In this document: piece after piece, positions 1 through 8,400 of the stretch
Layout: each line of letters opens with the position of its first letter
Numbering within the stretch: the first letter of the stretch is position 1
Origin: an uncultured Nitrospiraceae bacterium
GTDB lineage: Bacteria > Hydrogenedentota > Hydrogenedentia > Hydrogenedentales > SLHB01
DNA: 64,000 nt
Direction of reading: 5' to 3'
Assembly (NCBI GenBank): GCA_964402555.1
Contig: CAYOCT010000039.1
Location: forward strand, 615 to 64,614
Notes under the pieces: model-generated
What the model was told of the DNA's origin: nothing
Seen by the model: only the letters and a program-made list of their open reading frames with translations
Databases searched by the model: none
Position numbers and translations under genes: made by a program

Positions 1-2042
1 ATTGCCGTTGGGAATTTGAACATGGCGAGGAAACGCTGCCGGTACAGGCTGTTCCAGAACACGAGCAGCAGGAATGGCAAGAGCAGGACGTACATCATCA
101 AGGCGCCGCCGCAGGCCGCGAACCCAAGGCCGAACAGGAGGAAGGGCAGCATGGAAGGACCCATGCGCGCCGCCGCAATGCCACCGAGCATCAAAACCAC
201 AGCAAGCGCAGGCACGACCATCGCTCCAAGCAGGACAAGACCGAACTTCGCCGCGGTGTATCGCTTGCGGCAGAAGAATGCGGCAATGACCACGGCGAAG
301 AAGAGCCATGCCACTTCGGCGGCATAGAGCATCGCACTGGGCCCAAGGAACGCCAGCGCTTTGGGCGTGGTCCCGTCCAAGCCGGTCGCGAACAGCAGGC
401 CCGCTCCACCCGCGATGGCCAGCACGACGCACGAAACGGCAAAGACGCCTCCACGGGTAAGCCGCTCGAACCGGTAGGCGACGAGCAGCAAGGCGCCGAT
501 GCCCAGCCACAGCAGTGGCACCGATTGCGGCACGGAGGGCAGGTTGATGGGTATGTCGATGCCGGAGGCGGCGGCCTGCTTGGCTGCACCGAGGAGCGCC
601 ACCGCGCCGAGTGCGACCGCGTAAGGAATGACGATCGCCCACGCGCGCCAGTTGCGGTTCGAGCGAAGCAGGAGCAGCAACGGAAGAATCGCCCACGGGA
701 GCAATGGGATCGCGCTCCACGCGAGTTTCCACGGCACTACAAGAGGGGGGCCTTCTTTCGGTCCCAGGGAACCCAGATTGGCGGAGGCTACAAGACGCAG
801 TTCGGTGTTGCCCATCGGAGGTACTCGCCATGAGTACGTGCAGCCACTCTTCCCTCAGCCATACTCGAACGTGCCGGACGCGATCTTCCGGTCGCCGCGA
901 TAGGCCGCAAACCTCGGAGGGTCGAACCGCGAGCCATCGCTCGAATAGGTTTCGCCGCCTGCGCCCATCAGTTTGTACGCGAGGTCGAACCGGTTGGCGA
1001 ATCGTTCCGCGGTAATGGTATTCCTCAGCGGCGCCCCGCACTTCAGCGTGGCCGTGCCGTCGGCAGGCAGGTTGCCCGTGAGGCCCGTACTACTGGCCCG
1101 CCAGAGCCGACCGCCCTGGCTCAAAGCAGCCAGTATCTCGGACTTCGCGCCGGACTTGTCGCCCAACACGTACACCGCGTTGACGTAGAAGTTTCCGGCT
1201 GGCAGTGTCACGGAACCTTCGGGCGCATCGAGGATCGCGCGGCGCTCGTCCATATTCAACACGAGGAACTTGATGTGCTCGCCTTCAATGGCCAGCTTGC
1301 CCGTAGGACACGACGCTTCTTTTACGGAAATCTGAGGCAGCCCTTCATGAAACGAGAAGTCGAGCGTATGATCGTATCCGTCGAAGAAGACATTCTTAAG
1401 GGCGGGAAAGTCCGTCGCGTCGACATTCAGATCAGCCAGATCGGGATTGTCGTCTCGCACGCGCTCTAGAAGGAGAAGATCTTCGGAATCGATCTCGCCG
1501 TCCAGGTTATCGGCCAGATACAGGACCCACTTCGCGCCGTGGTGGTCGAACTCACCGCGCCACCCCGAGACGACCTCCATGGAAAGAAGAGCGTCGACCA
1601 TAAATGTCAACTGCGCCCGATGGCTGACCAGGTTGTCGGCCGGACCGGAAAGCAGAACCACGTTGTCAAACGCGAGATGAGAAATGAAAGGCTCCTTCTT
1701 GCAGCTATAGACCGCTTCGGGGTCGTCTGTCAGATCAAGATTCCGATTCGCGTCCACATAGAGTTTTGCGGCGTCGAGGTCGCAGGCATAGCCCGTATAC
1801 CCGCTCTTGTCTTTGGCCGTCGGGAGGACTCCTCGCAGAATCTTCGCGCCTTCGTACGTAGGCTCTTTGCGGAAGACGATCTCCTGTTCTCGGCTCGGCG
1901 TGGTCAGACTCACATGAAAGCCGCTGTCCACCGCCGCGCAATGCACGACATATTCGGACGGCTGCGCCGACTCGTCCGCGAAGGAAAGAGAACAGAAAAG
2001 GCAGGCCGCGATCGTGCCCGCAAAGATCACGTTTGTACGCAT
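1..2042 (-). CDS. Candidate selenoprotein, 3'-truncated by the window: signal peptide + extracytoplasmic domain + in-frame UGA at 857..855 + multi-pass membrane domain. Conventional reading would be two ORFs, 2042..855 and 815..<1
   Basis: Track ORF 855..2096 has its likely start at ATG 2042 (MRTNVIFAGTIAACLFCSLSFA, signal-peptide-like) and ends FEYG-TGA. Manual translation shows the same frame open from 854 to the window edge (GKSGCTYSWRVPPMGNTELRLVASANLG... then about 7 hydrophobic segments). Confidence 0.7.
821..857 (-). promoter_or_regulatory. Putative bacterial SECIS-like hairpin downstream of in-frame UGA
   Basis: Minus strand reads TGA-17 nt-GTACTC-ATGGC-GAGTAC: a perfect 6-bp stem (837..832 with 826..821) and a 5-nt loop containing GG. 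Confidence 0.55.
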
Positions 2043-2141: not shown

Positions 2142-2906
2142 CTACGCGTCGTAACGAACTTCCATCAGCGCCAGGCCGTGCGCGGGCGCCGAGTGGCCGT
2201 GGAATGGACCGGGCGACGCCAGCAGATCCGCCAGCCGTTCCTCGGGCAAGGCGTCGCGCGCCACGTCGACCAGCGTGCCCACTATGTTGCGCACCATCTT
2301 GTACAGGAATCCGTCGCCATGGAATTCGAGCCGCCACACGTCTTGCGTGTCGCACGGGCCCGCGAAACCGCCGAGTTTCAGGTCGATCGCGTACACGGTG
2401 CGCACGGTGGATTCGACGTGGGCGCCGCTGCATTGGAACCCCGCGAAATCGTGCTGACCCACGAGACGCTGCGCGAGCGCGTGCACGCAATTGCGGTCGA
2501 TAGGCCAGCCCGTGTGCCACGCGTAGCGCGCCGCAAACGGGTCCGGCTCGCGCGCATCCGAGATCGCGTACGCATACCGTTTCGACGTGGCGCTGAAACG
2601 CGCGTTAAACGACTCGGGCGCCTCGTCGACGCTCTCGATTCGGATCTCGGGTCCAAGCATGCGCGATAACGACCGGCAGAGGCGCTTCGTATCCGCATCC
2701 CCGGGCCACTCGAACGAACAGACTTGCCCCAGCGCGTGGACTCCGGCGTCGGTTCTTCCGGAGCCCATCACGCGGACCGGTTGGGATACGATTTGCGATA
2801 GCGCGCGCTCGATCTCGCCCTGCACGGTACGCGCGTTTGGCTGGATCTGCCATCCGGCGAAACCGGTCCCGTCGTAACGCACGATCGCTTTCAACGTGTG
2901 TGCCAT
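2142..2906 (-). CDS. truA: tRNA pseudouridine(38-40) synthase TruA
   Basis: Motifs YDGTGFAGWQIQ, GSGRTDAGVHA, GFLYKMVRNIVG, APAHGLAL. Confidence 0.97.
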   Translation of the reverse strand: MAHTLKAIVRYDGTGFAGWQIQPNARTVQGEIERALSQIVSQPVRVMGSGRTDAGVHALGQVCSFEWPGDADTKRLCRSLSRMLGPEIRIESVDEAPESFNARFSATSKRYAYAISDAREPDPFAARYAWHTGWPIDRNCVHALAQRLVGQHDFAGFQCSGAHVESTVRTVYAIDLKLGGFAGPCDTQDVWRLEFHGDGFLYKMVRNIVGTLVDVARDALPEERLADLLASPGPFHGHSAPAHGLALMEVRYDA

Positions 2907-3005
2907 GCGGCCATCATAGCAGGAACGAAACTGCGCGCGATACGGCGGCCGTGACTCGGGATGCGCACTTGTGAAATGATGGCGCGAGAAAGCGAGGACC
3001 TATCG

Positions 3006-4142
3006 ATGCAGGACCGTCTCCATATCGCGCGCCTCAACCCGAAGGAAGAACGCCGGCTTCTCCGCGGGCATCTTTGGGCGTATCGCAATGAGTTCGCGCA
3101 GCTTCCCGATGTGGAAGACGGCGGGCTTGTCGAGGTTGTCGCGTCGTCGGGCCGGAGTGTCGGCGTCGGGTTCTATCAGGCACAAGGCGGCATCGCCGTG
3201 CGCTTGCTCGCGCGCAAACCGGCCGCAATCGACGGCGCGTTCTTCGCCGAACGCATCGCAGCGGCGCGGCGTTTTCGCGAAACCATTTTTCCAGACGAGA
3301 CGGTATATCGCTGGGTGTTCGGCGAAAGCGACGGACTGCCGGGGCTGGTTATCGATCGCTATGGCGCCGTCGTAGCCGTCGAAACCGCGTGCGCATTCTA
3401 TGGCCCGTGGCTCGATGCCGTCGCCGAGGTTCTGCTCACGACCGAAGGCGTGGACGGCATCCGCGCCGTGTGTTGTGGTGGCGTGCATCGCTATGGACAG
3501 GTTCCACCCGAGGCCGCGTGTAGGGTGGATGGTGTCGAGGTTAAGGTTCGCATCGAAAGCGGACAGAAGACCGGCCTGTTTCTCGATCAGCGCGCGAACT
3601 GGCCGATGGTCCGCCGCTATGCGTGCGGCGCGCGGGTGCTCGACGGCCACTGCTACGTGGGCCTGTGGAGCGTTCACGCGGCCCTCGCAGGCGCGAAGTA
3701 TGTGGTGGGCGTCGACACGTCGGGCCAGGCCATCGAGATGGCGGCGGCTCACGCGGAAGCCGCGGGCGTGAGCGATCGGTGCCGATTCGAGCGCGCCGAT
3801 ATCGAGGAGGTCCTCAGCCGCGGTGACCGCTACGACTGCATCGTGCTCGACCCGCCGGCCTACGCCAAGTCGCGCGCGCACGAACGTAAAGCGCTCGCGC
3901 AATACCAAGCGCTCAACGCGGCGGCAATGCAAGCCCTCGAACCGGGCGGGATCCTCATCACGTCGTCGTGCTCGCACTTCGTGAGCGCGGAGGCCTTCCT
4001 GGAAACGCTCAAACGCGTGGCAATATCAGCGCAACGCCAGGCATGGATTCTCGACGTGCGCGGCGCGGCTCCGGACCATCCTGTCTTGATGGCGATGCCC
4101 GAGACGTCGTATCTAAAGTGCGTCGTTATGCGCTTGCTCTGA
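3006..4142 (+). CDS. RlmI/RlmK-like class I SAM-dependent rRNA methyltransferase
   Basis: PUA-like N-terminus (GHLWAY), ESDGLPGLVIDRY, GQKTGLFLDQR, VLDPPAYAK, TSSCS. ATG 3006 follows GAGGAC. Confidence 0.9.
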   Translation: MQDRLHIARLNPKEERRLLRGHLWAYRNEFAQLPDVEDGGLVEVVASSGRSVGVGFYQAQGGIAVRLLARKPAAIDGAFFAERIAAARRFRETIFPDETVYRWVFGESDGLPGLVIDRYGAVVAVETACAFYGPWLDAVAEVLLTTEGVDGIRAVCCGGVHRYGQVPPEAACRVDGVEVKVRIESGQKTGLFLDQRANWPMVRRYACGARVLDGHCYVGLWSVHAALAGAKYVVGVDTSGQAIEMAAAHAEAAGVSDRCRFERADIEEVLSRGDRYDCIVLDPPAYAKSRAHERKALAQYQALNAAAMQALEPGGILITSSCSHFVSAEAFLETLKRVAISAQRQAWILDVRGAAPDHPVLMAMPETSYLKCVVMRLL

Positions 4143-4320: not shown

Positions 4321-5382
4321 AATGGTTGCGTCGGTTTCCATTTCCTCCATCGCGACCTCGCGTCGCTCGTCCGCGGAACGCCGGAGGGCCAGCGCGAAAC
4401 GCAGTATCTCGCGCGCTTGATCGCCGCGCAAGAGCGGATCCTCGACACCGCGGATTGCCCCGATGAAATTCTCCGTGGCATAACGGAATCCCGCGCCCCA
4501 ATCGGACTCGATGTCGTGATGGGTCCAGCCGTCGCTCGTGTAGACGCTGACCGCGGGACCATCCTGCAAGTTCCCGGTGCATCGCCGCACGAGCAAGATG
4601 CCGCGGCTTCCCGTCACTTCGAACCACTCGTCGCACGAGTAGTATCGCGTCGGGATTGCGAGGTCCATCGCCTGCGTGTAGTCGCACACGCCGTAGCGTT
4701 TCGCGTCCTTGTGCTTCCACATAATGACGGAGGGACAGTCGATGATGCGCTCGGTCCAATCGATCCACGCCGTCACGCGTTCGAACGCGCCCATGAGGTA
4801 CCACGCTGTCGCCCACATGTGATGTCCGTGATCGAAGGTCTGGAGACCGCGGCCGTTCTGGATCTCTTGCAGCCGCCACGCCCACGTTTCTTGCGGAACG
4901 GCCCAGCCATCGGACCAACGCCCACCGACGAACTTCATGCGCATGGTGATCGGTTCGCCAATTGTGCCGTCCTCGATAACGCGCTTCGCGAACGAAATCG
5001 GAGGATAGAAAAGATAATTGTCGGTGACCTTGTAGACCTTCTTCGTCTCGCGCACGGCATCGAGCATTCGGTCGGCGCTTGCGAGGCTGACGGTCATCGG
5101 TTTCTGCACGGCGATGTGTTTGCGCGCCTCGGCCGCCGCGATGACCATCGGCTCGTGGATGGTTTGCGGCGTCACGATTTCGACGGCGTCAATCTCGACG
5201 TCCGCAAGCAAATCGCGGTAGTCCGAGTAGGTCTTGGAAACGTTCCATTCCCGCTTGCGCCGCTGCGCGGTTTCGGAATCGACGTCGCAGATCGCCGTGA
5301 CTTCCGCGTCCGGATTGCCGGCATAACCCAGGTAATGGAGATCCGCAATGCGGCCAAGGCCAATGATGCCCACTCGGATCAC
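4315..5382 (-). CDS. Gfo/Idh/MocA family oxidoreductase
   Basis: Rossmann GIIGLGRIA, VQKPM (EKP-like), DHGHH. GTG start with GGAGG RBS. Confidence 0.92.
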   Translation of the reverse strand: MIRVGIIGLGRIADLHYLGYAGNPDAEVTAICDVDSETAQRRKREWNVSKTYSDYRDLLADVEIDAVEIVTPQTIHEPMVIAAAEARKHIAVQKPMTVSLASADRMLDAVRETKKVYKVTDNYLFYPPISFAKRVIEDGTIGEPITMRMKFVGGRWSDGWAVPQETWAWRLQEIQNGRGLQTFDHGHHMWATAWYLMGAFERVTAWIDWTERIIDCPSVIMWKHKDAKRYGVCDYTQAMDLAIPTRYYSCDEWFEVTGSRGILLVRRCTGNLQDGPAVSVYTSDGWTHHDIESDWGAGFRYATENFIGAIRGVEDPLLRGDQAREILRFALALRRSADERREVAMEEMETDATIS

Positions 5383-5425
5383 GTTCAGTCCTCCATGATC
5401 GCCGTATTGTCGTCGCTGCGGCCGG

Positions 5426-8400
5426 CTACGATTCCGCGCGCAATTCGAATGGCGCGAATAGGCCGTACTTCACCGAGTCGTACTCGGCGCCCGGCGGCGG
5501 ACCGGTCTCCGCGCCCTTGTGGAACGATCCCGGTGAGGCGAATCCCAGTGGCTGGTTGCCGTGGTGCGGCCCCATCGTATTCTTGAGCGTGCCGCAGACG
5601 ACGACCTCGACGCGGTTTTCGCCCGGAACGAGCAGTTTCGTCACGTCGCACTCGAAGGGCTGATGGAAGATGTAGCCCGCTTCGCTTCCGTTCACGAGGA
5701 CCTTCGCGACGCTGCCGTACCACGAGGGCAGCGCGACGACGTAGCGGCCCTTGGGTTGCGCGACGTTGAAGGCCTGCGTGTAGGCCACGTGATGCCCGTA
5801 GAGCGGGCAGCCCTGTTCGTTCCAAGCGCCGGCTTTCAGCGGTTGGGCAGGAACGATCGCGAATCCCTTTGCGGCGGGTTGCAGGGCGAACTCGCCGAGC
5901 ACGTAGGCGCACTCGAGTTCGTGGAACACGCTGAACGGCGACGCCTTCAGGCGCACTTCGTTCTCGCCCGCCTTGGCCGCCGCGGTGATATCGATCTTCC
6001 CGAAGGACCGGTCGAGCCACCACTGGCCTTCGGGCGCCGAGACGGGTTTGCCGTTACAGGTGACCGTGTAGAGATCGGCCCGTTCGATCACGAAGTACAA
6101 GGACGAAGGGACGGCGCCTTTGATGGTGAATTTGTACGCCGCTTCGAGGCCGCTGTCGGCCGGGAACGTCTTGCGCATGAATTCGTCGCCGAACTGCACC
6201 GCGTGATCCCACGGGTTCGCCGACATGCCGTTCTTCTGAAACGCAAATGTGTTCGCGCGATGGAAATGCAGGTCGGTCTTTGTCTCGCCGCCCGCGGACA
6301 CATCCATGTAGTCGAGCGTCAAAACGTTCGGATCGCACCGCCGCGCGTCCATCGGTCCCGCGGGTTCGACACGAACGGAAGGGCTTGCCGCGGCCGTCAC
6401 CGACTCGCAGGACTGTTTCGAGAAGAACAACAACAGGCTTCCGCATGGCGGCAGATTGAACGACACCGCGACCCCGTCCTTGTCGGACGCGAACGAGTAC
6501 GGCGCGATTTCGCCTGTCGCACAGTCCCACTGCTGCACGCCGTGCGCGTCCGACGCGATCTGCCCGGCGGTGGGCGCGTCGTTGCTCGTGTTCGAGAGGA
6601 AGACCAGATCGCCGTCGTCGAGCTTGCGCCGCATGTGGTACAGCGTGCCCTTGTCTTCCTGCGCGCGCACGATAGCAAATCCTTGACCCTGTCTTCCCTT
6701 GAGGAACGGCGCGAGATCCGAAGACTCTACATGTGACCACACCGGTGACTTCGCGAGGGTCTGGCCGCGCTCCGAAGGCTGGCCGTCGATCAACGCCGGA
6801 GGCAGCGCATCCACGGACACGATGGCGCCGCCGGCCTTCGCAAACGCTTCGAGCAACTCGCAAGTCTTCGCGTTCAGGTTCTCCATCGACGCGGGCAGCA
6901 CAACCGTGTCATAGCGCCGATGGCCCACCACGAGCGCCTTGCCATCGACGGAGCCGTGCTGCGCCATGATGTTCTCGCTGCCGAGATCGAACTCAACCTG
7001 GGCCTTCGCGAGCGACACGACGAGTTGCTGGAACGTCTCGCCGATCGCGTCGGCGCGATCACGTCCCGTGGTTTGATACATCCACACGGTCGTCGTCGGT
7101 TCGAGGACGAGGATGGTGTTCATCTGCTCGCCCCGCGACAAGGCCATCATGAGCCGCGTGAAATACGATTCGAGGACGTGATACGCGTCCCACCACGGCT
7201 CGTGATAGGAGAACGTCGGCGGATAGTCGCGTTTGCGCGCGCCGCGGATCGTAATGTGGGACAAGTGTTCATCGATGGTATTGACGCCGAGCACACAGAC
7301 CCAGTCGCCGAGCCGTTTGAAATCCTCGAAGCGCATGTCCCATCCGCTGCCGCCGTACGTCTCGCACAACGTGCGTTTCCGTCCCATCTGGTTGGCGACG
7401 CTCGCGAGTTCGATCACCGAGCGGACGTTGCCAAACTGCGCGTGGACGCCTTCGTTGTACTGATTGAAAAGGATGTCGATCGACGGGCGTTGATGCCACA
7501 TGTACATTGCCATGTTGTCCGGAACCGATACACAGTCCGGCCACGAGTGCTCCCAGTAGTGCCCGGTGAACTCGATGCCGAGGCGCTCGCAGTATTCCGA
7601 ATAGGGCTTCGCCCAGCGCTCGACAAACAGGTCCGAAAGCACCTGGAAATAGTTGTGCCGGACGCGCTTCCAGTCGCCGGTTTCCTGAAACAGCCCCGGC
7701 AGCGTATCGACCAGCGAGTAGCCCCACCGCGTGCCGAACACGCCGGCGAAATCCGCCGTCCAATGCAGGCCGCCCGCTGGGGCGAGATGCGGCTCGTCGG
7801 TGAACGATCCCGGCACGCGCGTGCCGAGCGCGCCGCCGAGTTCGCGATGGTACGCGCCGAGCGTGATATCGAGGAACTTCTCCGTCACACCGGGATACAG
7901 CAGGTCGACGTAATACTTGCCCGCGAACCACGGCGACGGTTTCGATTCCTCGATCAGGGCGACGAGGTAGCTGCCCTCAGGGAACGATTCGCCTTTGCGT
8001 GCGCGCTCGGTGATGTTCTCGCACGCGCCGCCGTCAAGCTTGTAGGCGGCGAGCGCGTTATCGTCCAGCTTCTCGATGCGCTTTGCTTCCTTCAGGTGCG
8101 CGCCGTGCCCGCGTGACTCCGGCATCGCCTCCGGCACGAACCCTCCCGCAAATCCCGACGGGTACGAATTCTCGTCGTAGATCCAGACGTTCATGTCGAG
8201 GCGTTCGGCTTCCGCAATACACGCCTTCCATAACCGGAACCAGTCCGGCGAGAGATAGGCCGTCATCAGGCCAGGCCGCGGATGCACGAAGACCTGCCGC
8301 ACGCCCTGTCCGGCCAGATCGCGCATGGTGGCGATCACTTCGTCTTCGGTCAGCAGGTCATTCCAAACCCATAGTGGCGCGGACGCGAATTCGCGCGGCG

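Follow-up and report, generated by a model that had tools for sequence, protein, structure and literature searches.

A short covarying hairpin as a probable SECIS element in an apparently undescribed bacterial selenoprotein family

The selenocysteine insertion sequence (SECIS) of Escherichia coli fdhF and fdnG is an experimentally defined SelB-binding hairpin, with a GGUC loop, a bulged U and a spacing of 11 nt. Here we compare with such elements a hairpin located at positions 837-821, on the minus strand, of a 64,000-nt stretch of contig CAYOCT010000039.1 (GenBank assembly GCA_964402555.1; "the window" designates this whole stretch). It follows an in-frame UGA (857-855) in a gene whose putative product combines a periplasmic and a membrane part. 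Based on the comparison of its relatives, this hairpin is very probably the bacterial SECIS of that UGA, where it would direct the insertion of selenocysteine (Sec).

The consensus used by bSECISearch for bacterial SECIS elements consists of an apical loop of 3-9 nt with at least one G in loop positions 1-2, an upper stem of 4-16 bp, a distance of 16-37 nt between the UGA and the loop, and a minimum free energy (MFE) of -7.5 kcal/mol or lower (PMC13188914, Fig. 2). Some real SECIS elements fail this model (PMC13188914). Selenoproteins are usually recognized by their Sec/Cys pairs of homologs: GrdA, the selenoprotein A of glycine reductase, has long been cited as the sole selenoprotein without Cys homologs, and according to the deep-Sep study all known selenoproteins now have Cys homologs, the method discarding the families which have none (PMC12013277). 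The element described below appears to work like a bacterial SECIS, as a variant which lies outside the strict consensus, in a selenoprotein family which appears to be undescribed.

Selection on the hairpin downstream of the UGA

The gene starts with an ATG at position 2042 of the minus strand, and its frame stays open past the TGA at 857-855 as far as position 1 of the window. The TGA, open in frame on both sides, is the proposed Sec codon and corresponds to residue 396 of the read-through protein; the continuation reads GKSGCTYSWRVPPMGNTELRLVAS..., followed by a hydrophobic region with several helices. A spacer of 17 nt separates the UGA from the stem (854-838, GGGAAGAGTGGCTGCAC); it codes for G-K-S-G-C-(T) and contains a conserved Cys codon, TGC, at 842-840. 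The 5' arm GUACUC (837-832) pairs with the 3' arm GAGUAC (826-821), whose synonymous sites are fixed for pairing in the relatives, and the two arms enclose the apical loop AUGGC (831-827). The stem is a perfect Watson-Crick helix of 6 bp with a 5-nt loop, and the exact 17-mer occurs only once in the window. The initial annotation had described this GTACTC-ATGGC-GAGTAC stem 17 nt after the UGA, with its first loop G about 26 nt away; the coordinates, the spacing and the loop are all confirmed, this G being the 26th nucleotide after the UGA. Between the UGA and the loop there are 23 nt in the window, and 93 of 97 genomic copies have 20 nt.

The MFE structure of positions 870-780 and the centroid structure both contain the hairpin, whose energy is -6.0 kcal/mol alone and -7.1 kcal/mol in context (the local MFE of the segment from the UGA to +48 is -10.6 kcal/mol). 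Compared to dinucleotide shuffles, the 91-nt stretch folds less well and shows no signal (z = +1.45; 189 of 200 shuffles fold equally well or better), and single-sequence folding was dropped as evidence in either direction. Perfect 6-bp stems with a loop of 3-9 nt at a suitable distance also follow 59 of the 1380 TGA triplets of the window (4.3%). The hairpin by itself proves little and is unremarkable without a comparison to relatives; the earlier caution that a 6-bp stem may arise by chance and is supporting rather than decisive evidence was right.

A search with the read-through protein returned six relatives with 27-35% identity, all of which end with ...FE[YF]G. In each of the corresponding contigs there is a TGA at the end point, then an in-frame motif G-G-x-C-x-Y-[SP]-W-R-V-P and a membrane domain of 270-330 residues, annotated as a separate open reading frame (ORF). 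The protein alignment has invariant columns on both sides of the UGA. A scan of one genome per species gave 79 loci, all in metagenome-assembled genomes (MAGs); together with nine contigs fetched before and the window, these yielded 97 copies of the motif. The distance between the TGA and the Cys codon is four codons in 93 of these copies, five in two (the window being one of them) and three in two. The spacer is thus usually 14 nt long (U-GGT-C), and the 17 nt of the window correspond to one extra codon, which is found in 2 of the 97 copies.

In this genome set, the codons which form the stem depart strongly from the genes' own codon usage, which was taken as background. The Val codon is GTA in 88 of 92 sequences (96%, against 9.6% in the background), the Arg codon is CGA in 83 of 92 (90%, against 11.7%) and the Tyr codon is TAC in 91 of 92 (99%, against 51%). 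The codon before the Tyr ends with G in 91 of 92 cases, against 35.5% in the background, though nine different amino acids are encoded at this position. Codon choice in the stem is, judged from this bias, set by pairing. Pairing is found in 539 of the 540 stem cells of 90 relatives, but there is scarcely any variation in the stem, and the peptide encoded by the hairpin was itself a selection criterion in one of the two search patterns.

For this reason a second set was built from the 5' flank alone, by scanning metagenomes for FE[YF]G-TGA-GGT-C. At least 120 stretches were found, and 115 distinct downstream sequences were aligned with that of the window (116 rows). In this set 98.4% of the stem cells are paired and compensatory double changes occur in five of the six pairs. 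There are 71 cells with double changes, compared to 19.8 +/- 3.0 in shuffles (reached in 0 of 500), and the covariation score is 0.336, where shuffles give 0.129 (0 of 500 as high) and controls with a slid partner give no more than 0.12. The variants include GCUCUC/GAGAGC, GCACUC/GAGUGC, GCUCCG/CGGAGC, GUAUUC/GAAUAC, GCACAC/GUGUGC and GAACUC/GAGUUC. With these compensatory changes the encoded peptide changes from YSWRV to LSWRE, HSWRV, LRWPE, YSGRI or NSWRV while the pairing persists. The two column pairs with the highest mutual information are stem pairs 2 and 3, and RNAalifold, with 90 as with 256 sequences, predicts this stem and nothing else. Covariation among homologs which have the UGA had been proposed as a check of the hairpin; the stem proves both conserved and covarying, and we consider that these comparisons show it to be under selection as RNA.

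While the stem covaries, the U-G-G-C of the loop is conserved in at least 90% of the sequences; of 256 sequences, 137 have G and 117 have A at the first loop position. The proposal that GAGG at the UGA could pair with the following CCTC to form a lower helix does not hold. This GAGG:CCUC helix can be drawn in the window but costs energy (-5.9 versus -7.1 kcal/mol), the bases of its middle pair do not match in 49 of 90 relatives and it shows zero covariation, and it was rejected.

The Pro codon located 3' of the stem (818-820) has a bias of its own. It avoids G at the third position (CCG in 8 of 92 sequences, against 47.7% in the background), CCT is used in 42 of 92 (against 14.5%), and the base at +35 is G in 22 of 256 sequences. 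The conserved stem does not explain this avoidance, which may reflect a contact with SelB or the avoidance of an alternative pairing.

The UGA codon in relatives and its link to selenocysteine genes

The codon at the site is TGA in all 97 genomic copies. In metagenomes, the same flanks are found with TGA in at least 120 matches and with TGY in none. No Cys form was seen in the 97 genome copies, nor among more than 250 instances of the motif. A profile of the N-terminal domain matched 2222 proteins (E up to 0.001) among 1.84 billion cluster representatives (50%-identity clusters). All but a few of the best 150 of these 2222 matches stop exactly at the last position of the profile, which means that they are truncated at the UGA. 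Among these best 150, no Cys form was present in the length and end outliers that were inspected, and the only full-length protein was an Arg form, P0151. A profile of the C-terminal transmembrane part, aimed at full-length Cys forms, retrieved only six short, separately called ORFs; hydrophobic words swamped its word prefilter, and this result carries no information. Since no Cys forms were found, Sec seems to be irreplaceable in this family.

Two sense-codon forms, both with Arg (CGA), were observed among the more than 250 motif instances. P0151, at 5001-7097 of locus L089, is a full-length paralog of 698 residues in which the UGA is replaced by CGA and the Cys by His, and which retains four of the six stem pairs. 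It lies in tandem behind a copy with the UGA (2794-4020 and downstream), and both are downstream of selB, a small ORF and a gene for a NapH-like protein. The other, at about position 593 of the minus strand of locus L155 (reverse-complement coordinates), is a short-form member which has CGA instead of UGA and an intact hairpin. Both variants result from a single step, TGA to CGA, while the change from TGA to TGY, which is equally a single step, was never seen. The two losses of the UGA both look recent. The initial annotation had proposed that the stem should be lost in Cys-coding homologs. As no such homologs were found, this can be examined on the Arg-coding paralogs alone, and they disagree: the stem has decayed to 4 bp in L089, as anticipated, and is intact in L155.

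The relatives span more than ten phyla. The 79 genome loci belong to Hydrogenedentota, Verrucomicrobiota, Planctomycetota, Riflebacteria, Aminicenantes, Latescibacterota, Omnitrophota, Sumerlaeota, Kiritimatiellia, Nitrospiraceae and Acidobacteria, and several paralogs per genome are common. A soluble subfamily with the motif MPFG-U-DGTC-GYSWRVP continues for about 49-58 residues past the Sec and has no membrane domain (L052, at 424, 2021, 3661 and 4426; also L046, L063, L068, L072 and L083). Its genes form tandem arrays, with up to four UGA paralogs per 5 kb, in MAGs of Pirellulales and Sedimentisphaerales. In two loci from long-read-derived MAGs, L006 (about 7500-7560) and L031 (about 5180-5230), frameshifts or small indels lie within the motif or just before it; the called protein of L006 ends with PRIG in another frame and the stem of L031 is garbled. 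These indels would be either assembly errors or signs of pseudogenes.

The family is linked to the genes of Sec synthesis and insertion. In locus L001, the gene order is selA, selD, selB (with the SelB winged-helix domain), an ORF of 88 codons, a gene for a NapH/MauN-like Fe-S membrane protein and the family gene. Local tblastn searches found selB directly upstream and on the same strand in about 20 loci (17 of the 79 genome loci), selD in about 12 loci and selA in seven. Among the metagenome loci listed, sel genes are present in 30 of 120, and in 10 of the 19 which have at least 4.5 kb upstream. L045 has a tRNA-Sec gene, selA and the family gene side by side. The SelD of L001 (842-2443) has a C-terminal AhpD/CMD-like domain of about 150 residues; this extra domain is weakly similar to AhpD domains which occur in known selenoproteins (NF041537, NF045649).

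All loci were scanned for stems with a RUGG[C/A] loop, and this revealed a second UGA in the same operon. The small 88-residue ORF which lies between selB and the NapH-like gene (4471-4737 in L001) has homologs in L003, L010, L012, L013, L016, L021, L025, L027, L034, L035, L038, L047, L089, L108, L164 and L200. In 17 of 17 distinct homologs it ends with ...[KR]xxC-P-T-TGA-X-stop, which places a CxxU motif a single residue ahead of the true stop. A hairpin of 6-7 bp follows, 13-17 nt past the TGA, in non-coding sequence. Its stem is wholly different from that of the family gene; 96.1% of its cells pair and its covariation score is 0.518, compared to 0.284 in shuffles (0 of 500). The loop is mostly AUGGC, AUGGA, AGGGC, AGGGA or AUGGU and is closed by an invariant C-G pair. 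The small ORF has no match in NCBIfam, and is a candidate second selenoprotein with a C-terminal CxxU.

Within a single operon, two UGA contexts which are unrelated thus have in common a loop motif, a stem length and a UGA-to-loop distance, as expected of the recognition element of the co-encoded SelB. The sel operon appears to contain a conserved module, made of selA-selD-selB, the putative CPTU-X-stop selenoprotein, the NapH-like Fe-S protein and the putative FEYG-U-GGTC selenoprotein. This module would be a selenium-dependent redox system, or a selenium-handling system, at the cytoplasmic membrane, and both selenoproteins would share one short C(RKGGM)G hairpin as a lineage-typical class of SECIS.

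Alternative readings of the UGA and of the hairpin

The proposal of the initial annotation that the hairpin is the recoding signal is supported by the covariation, by the conservation of the protein through the UGA, by the invariance of the TGA and by the linkage to sel genes. Several observations weigh against it. Taken alone, the hairpin is weak (-6.0 to -7.1 kcal/mol), and the loop AUGGC has no G in positions 1-2, which the consensus requires (PMC13188914). The spacing of the window, 17 nt, is rarer than the usual 14 nt. The hairpin matches no family of Rfam (release 15, including any SECIS models there): there was no match at the gathering score in the window, and the segment 740-900 gave nothing relevant at E values up to 10. 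The usual Sec/Cys criterion for selenoproteins (PMC12013277) finds no Cys homologs here, and the variant of L155, which is not a Sec form, keeps an intact stem. Finally, neither selA, selB, selD, tRNA-Sec nor any other tRNA was found in the 64 kb of the window, whose contig comes from a sludge metagenome, so we infer the Sec capacity of this organism from its relatives.

The alternative that survives best, very unlikely as it is, holds that the UGA is read through without Sec, for example with Trp, Cys or Arg from near-cognate decoding or by local recoding, the hairpin being a generic stimulator. A continuous frame with a conserved hairpin would also fit a stimulatory structure, and the loop of the window departs from the consensus SECIS rule. 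This explanation does not account for the repeated adjacency of the family to selA, selD, selB and tRNA-Sec across phyla, nor for the presence of the same type of hairpin behind a second UGA, whose CxxU context is typical of selenoproteins. Moreover, sense codons should be common at such a site, yet two Arg codons and no Cys codon were found among more than 250 instances.

It is even less likely that the TGA is an ordinary stop, that the membrane protein is the product of a separate gene starting from the ATG at 815-813, and that the hairpin is incidental or serves in coupling or attenuation. Gene callers do annotate two proteins, P0001 (395 residues) and P0157 (293 residues), a 6-bp stem behind a TGA is common by chance (4.3%) and the window contains no sel genes. 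However, an ordinary stop would vary between TAA, TAG and TGA, whereas the codon is TGA in 97 of 97 copies. The residues GGTC.YSWRVP, which lie between the TGA and any possible start, are the most conserved of all and are always in frame, while the called start of the downstream ORF is inconsistent from contig to contig (13, 109 or 85 nt past the TGA). The linkage of the family to selABD also argues against this explanation.

The least likely alternative, that the inverted repeat is a by-product of the conserved YSWRVP peptide with no role at the RNA level, can invoke the near invariance of this peptide in the first genome set (partly selected by the search pattern) and the minimal classical covariation in that set, but it is already contradicted by codon choice and by the 5'-flank covariation, since synonymous positions are fixed in a pairing-competent state against a strong codon bias and the pairing stays where the peptide varies. 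The small ORF, moreover, has its analogous hairpin outside any coding sequence.

A reassignment of UGA in the genetic code was ruled out. TGA, TAG and TAA serve as ordinary stops in the ten other genes of the window that were checked (eight of them with Pfam support), and four of the ten use TGA, so the genetic code is standard.

If the hairpin is a SECIS, the stem-loop would be held, with the ribosome at the UGA, by the C-terminal winged-helix domain of SelB, itself loaded with GTP and Sec-tRNA(Sec). SelB would then bring Sec into the A site before release factor 2, after which the ribosome would melt the hairpin and read T-Y-S-W-R-V-P. Both SelB binding and actual Sec insertion are deduced here from comparative data. 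The product would be a single protein of about 700 residues instead of two, with a signal peptide, periplasmic beta-sandwich domains, a beta-hairpin which carries Sec396 and Cys401, and a membrane bundle of 7-8 helices. The U/C pair would have a redox role; more broadly, the U-x3-C pair of the family may be devoted to redox chemistry or to the handling of selenium or metals, possibly fed by the NapH-like and CPTU proteins.

The broader proposal joins several parts: an undescribed and widespread family that exists only as a Sec form, a module in the sel operon, and a class of SECIS which both UGAs share and which present predictors, whether based on SECIS or on Sec/Cys pairs, miss. We judge the whole of it to be slightly favoured over its negation.

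The protein, its surroundings and comparison with described systems

The N-terminal part of the gene (858-2042, minus strand) encodes a signal peptide and a tandem beta-sandwich, 395 residues in total, ending with ...ASGTFEYG; it is a separate protein, P0001, in databases. The C-terminal part (1-854, minus strand) consists of GKSGCTYSWRVP, two beta strands and about 7-8 transmembrane helices, and runs off the start of the window. Gene callers report it as the separate 293-residue ORF P0157, which starts at the in-frame ATG at 815-813 on the minus strand. The AlphaFold2 model of the read-through protein of the window has a mean predicted local distance difference test score of 75, and above 90 across most of the N-terminal half. 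It consists of tandem beta-sandwich domains and seven to eight transmembrane helices at 445-674. In this model strands 385-391 and 401-406 are joined by a turn of low confidence, in which Sec396 lies, and Cys401 is at the C-terminal edge of the same turn. The spacing of the two residues is U-x4-C in the window and U-x3-C in most relatives.

The comparison of the model with the Protein Data Bank returned only generic Ig/Fn3-like tandem beta-sandwiches, with TM-scores near 0.1-0.3, and therefore gives no functional lead. Pfam and NCBIfam 20.0, searched at E up to 1, have no match for the read-through protein, the short-form member or the Arg paralog. The motif LY[LV]DxNRNLDLTDD, in the N-terminal beta domain (about 1740-1780 in the window, residues 93-107), is invariant in all homologs, and looks like an EF-hand or dockerin-type calcium-binding loop.

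In the window, the gene follows truA. Besides truA, the region 2142-64000 encodes GH106- and GH3-like glycosidases, a PGA_cap protein, a YfhO-like membrane protein, a 7TM-HD receptor, a radical-SAM protein and a transglutaminase-like TgpA; an ORF resembling SAM-dependent methyltransferases was assigned by eye from its translation.

A description of the family, of the operon or of the UxxxC motif was not found within the papers and databases searched, and in the table of 119 families in PMC13188914 we could recognize no entry with a U-x3-C motif, a periplasmic beta-sandwich and a transmembrane domain. The "Hypothetical protein DG" of the deep-Sep paper, which has a GUxG motif, was considered and rejected: it comes from Desulfosediminicola, it has Cys homologs and its NCBIfam model gives no match.

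If the proposed reading is right, thousands of truncated "hypothetical proteins" and orphan membrane ORFs would have to be joined in annotation as single selenoproteins. Current finders of bacterial selenoproteins depend on a consensus SECIS, with G in loop positions 1-2, or on the existence of Cys homologs. The family occurs in the sel operon of many uncultured phyla (Hydrogenedentota, the PVC group and others), alongside a further candidate selenoprotein and the NapH-like protein, and may be a main reason why such lineages retain the Sec trait, a role attributed elsewhere to FdhA. The nearly invariant 17-nt element, with its defined loop, would also be a convenient substrate for studies of SelB binding and recoding.

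Like the minimal functional unit of the SECIS of E. coli fdhF and fdnG, the element is an apical stem-loop, about 17 nt long, whose distance from the UGA is fixed, and the G residues of its loop are the expected contacts of SelB. It differs from the E. coli elements by its RUGGC loop, its stem without a bulge and its spacing of 14 nt (17 nt in the window).

As in the bacterial consensus, the element of the window is part of the coding sequence and directly follows an in-frame UGA on the 3' side, and it has a 5-nt G-rich loop, a 6-bp stem and a spacing of 23 nt (20 nt in most relatives). Unlike the consensus, it has no conserved lower stem, and the G residues of its AUGGC loop are at positions 3 and 4, with none at 1-2. 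The GUGGC loop of 137 of the 256 relatives complies with the loop-G rule. Whether the energy limit of -7.5 kcal/mol is reached depends on the span which is folded (-6.0 kcal/mol for the 17-mer, -7.1 in context and -10.6 from the UGA to +48).

The small CPTU-X-stop protein resembles the UXX-star and KCU-star families (PMC13188914, Table 1), in which Sec is also 1-2 residues from the true stop, within a CxxU motif. In these families as in the small ORF, this position places the SECIS in untranslated sequence. It differs from them in that it has no NCBIfam match and lies between selB and the NapH-like gene.

The family would be both a counter-example to the Cys-homolog rule stated in PMC12013277 and a blind spot of current prediction methods. 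It resembles GrdA in that it apparently exists in the Sec form alone, and differs from it in fold and location, since the family consists of a periplasmic beta-sandwich and a membrane domain.

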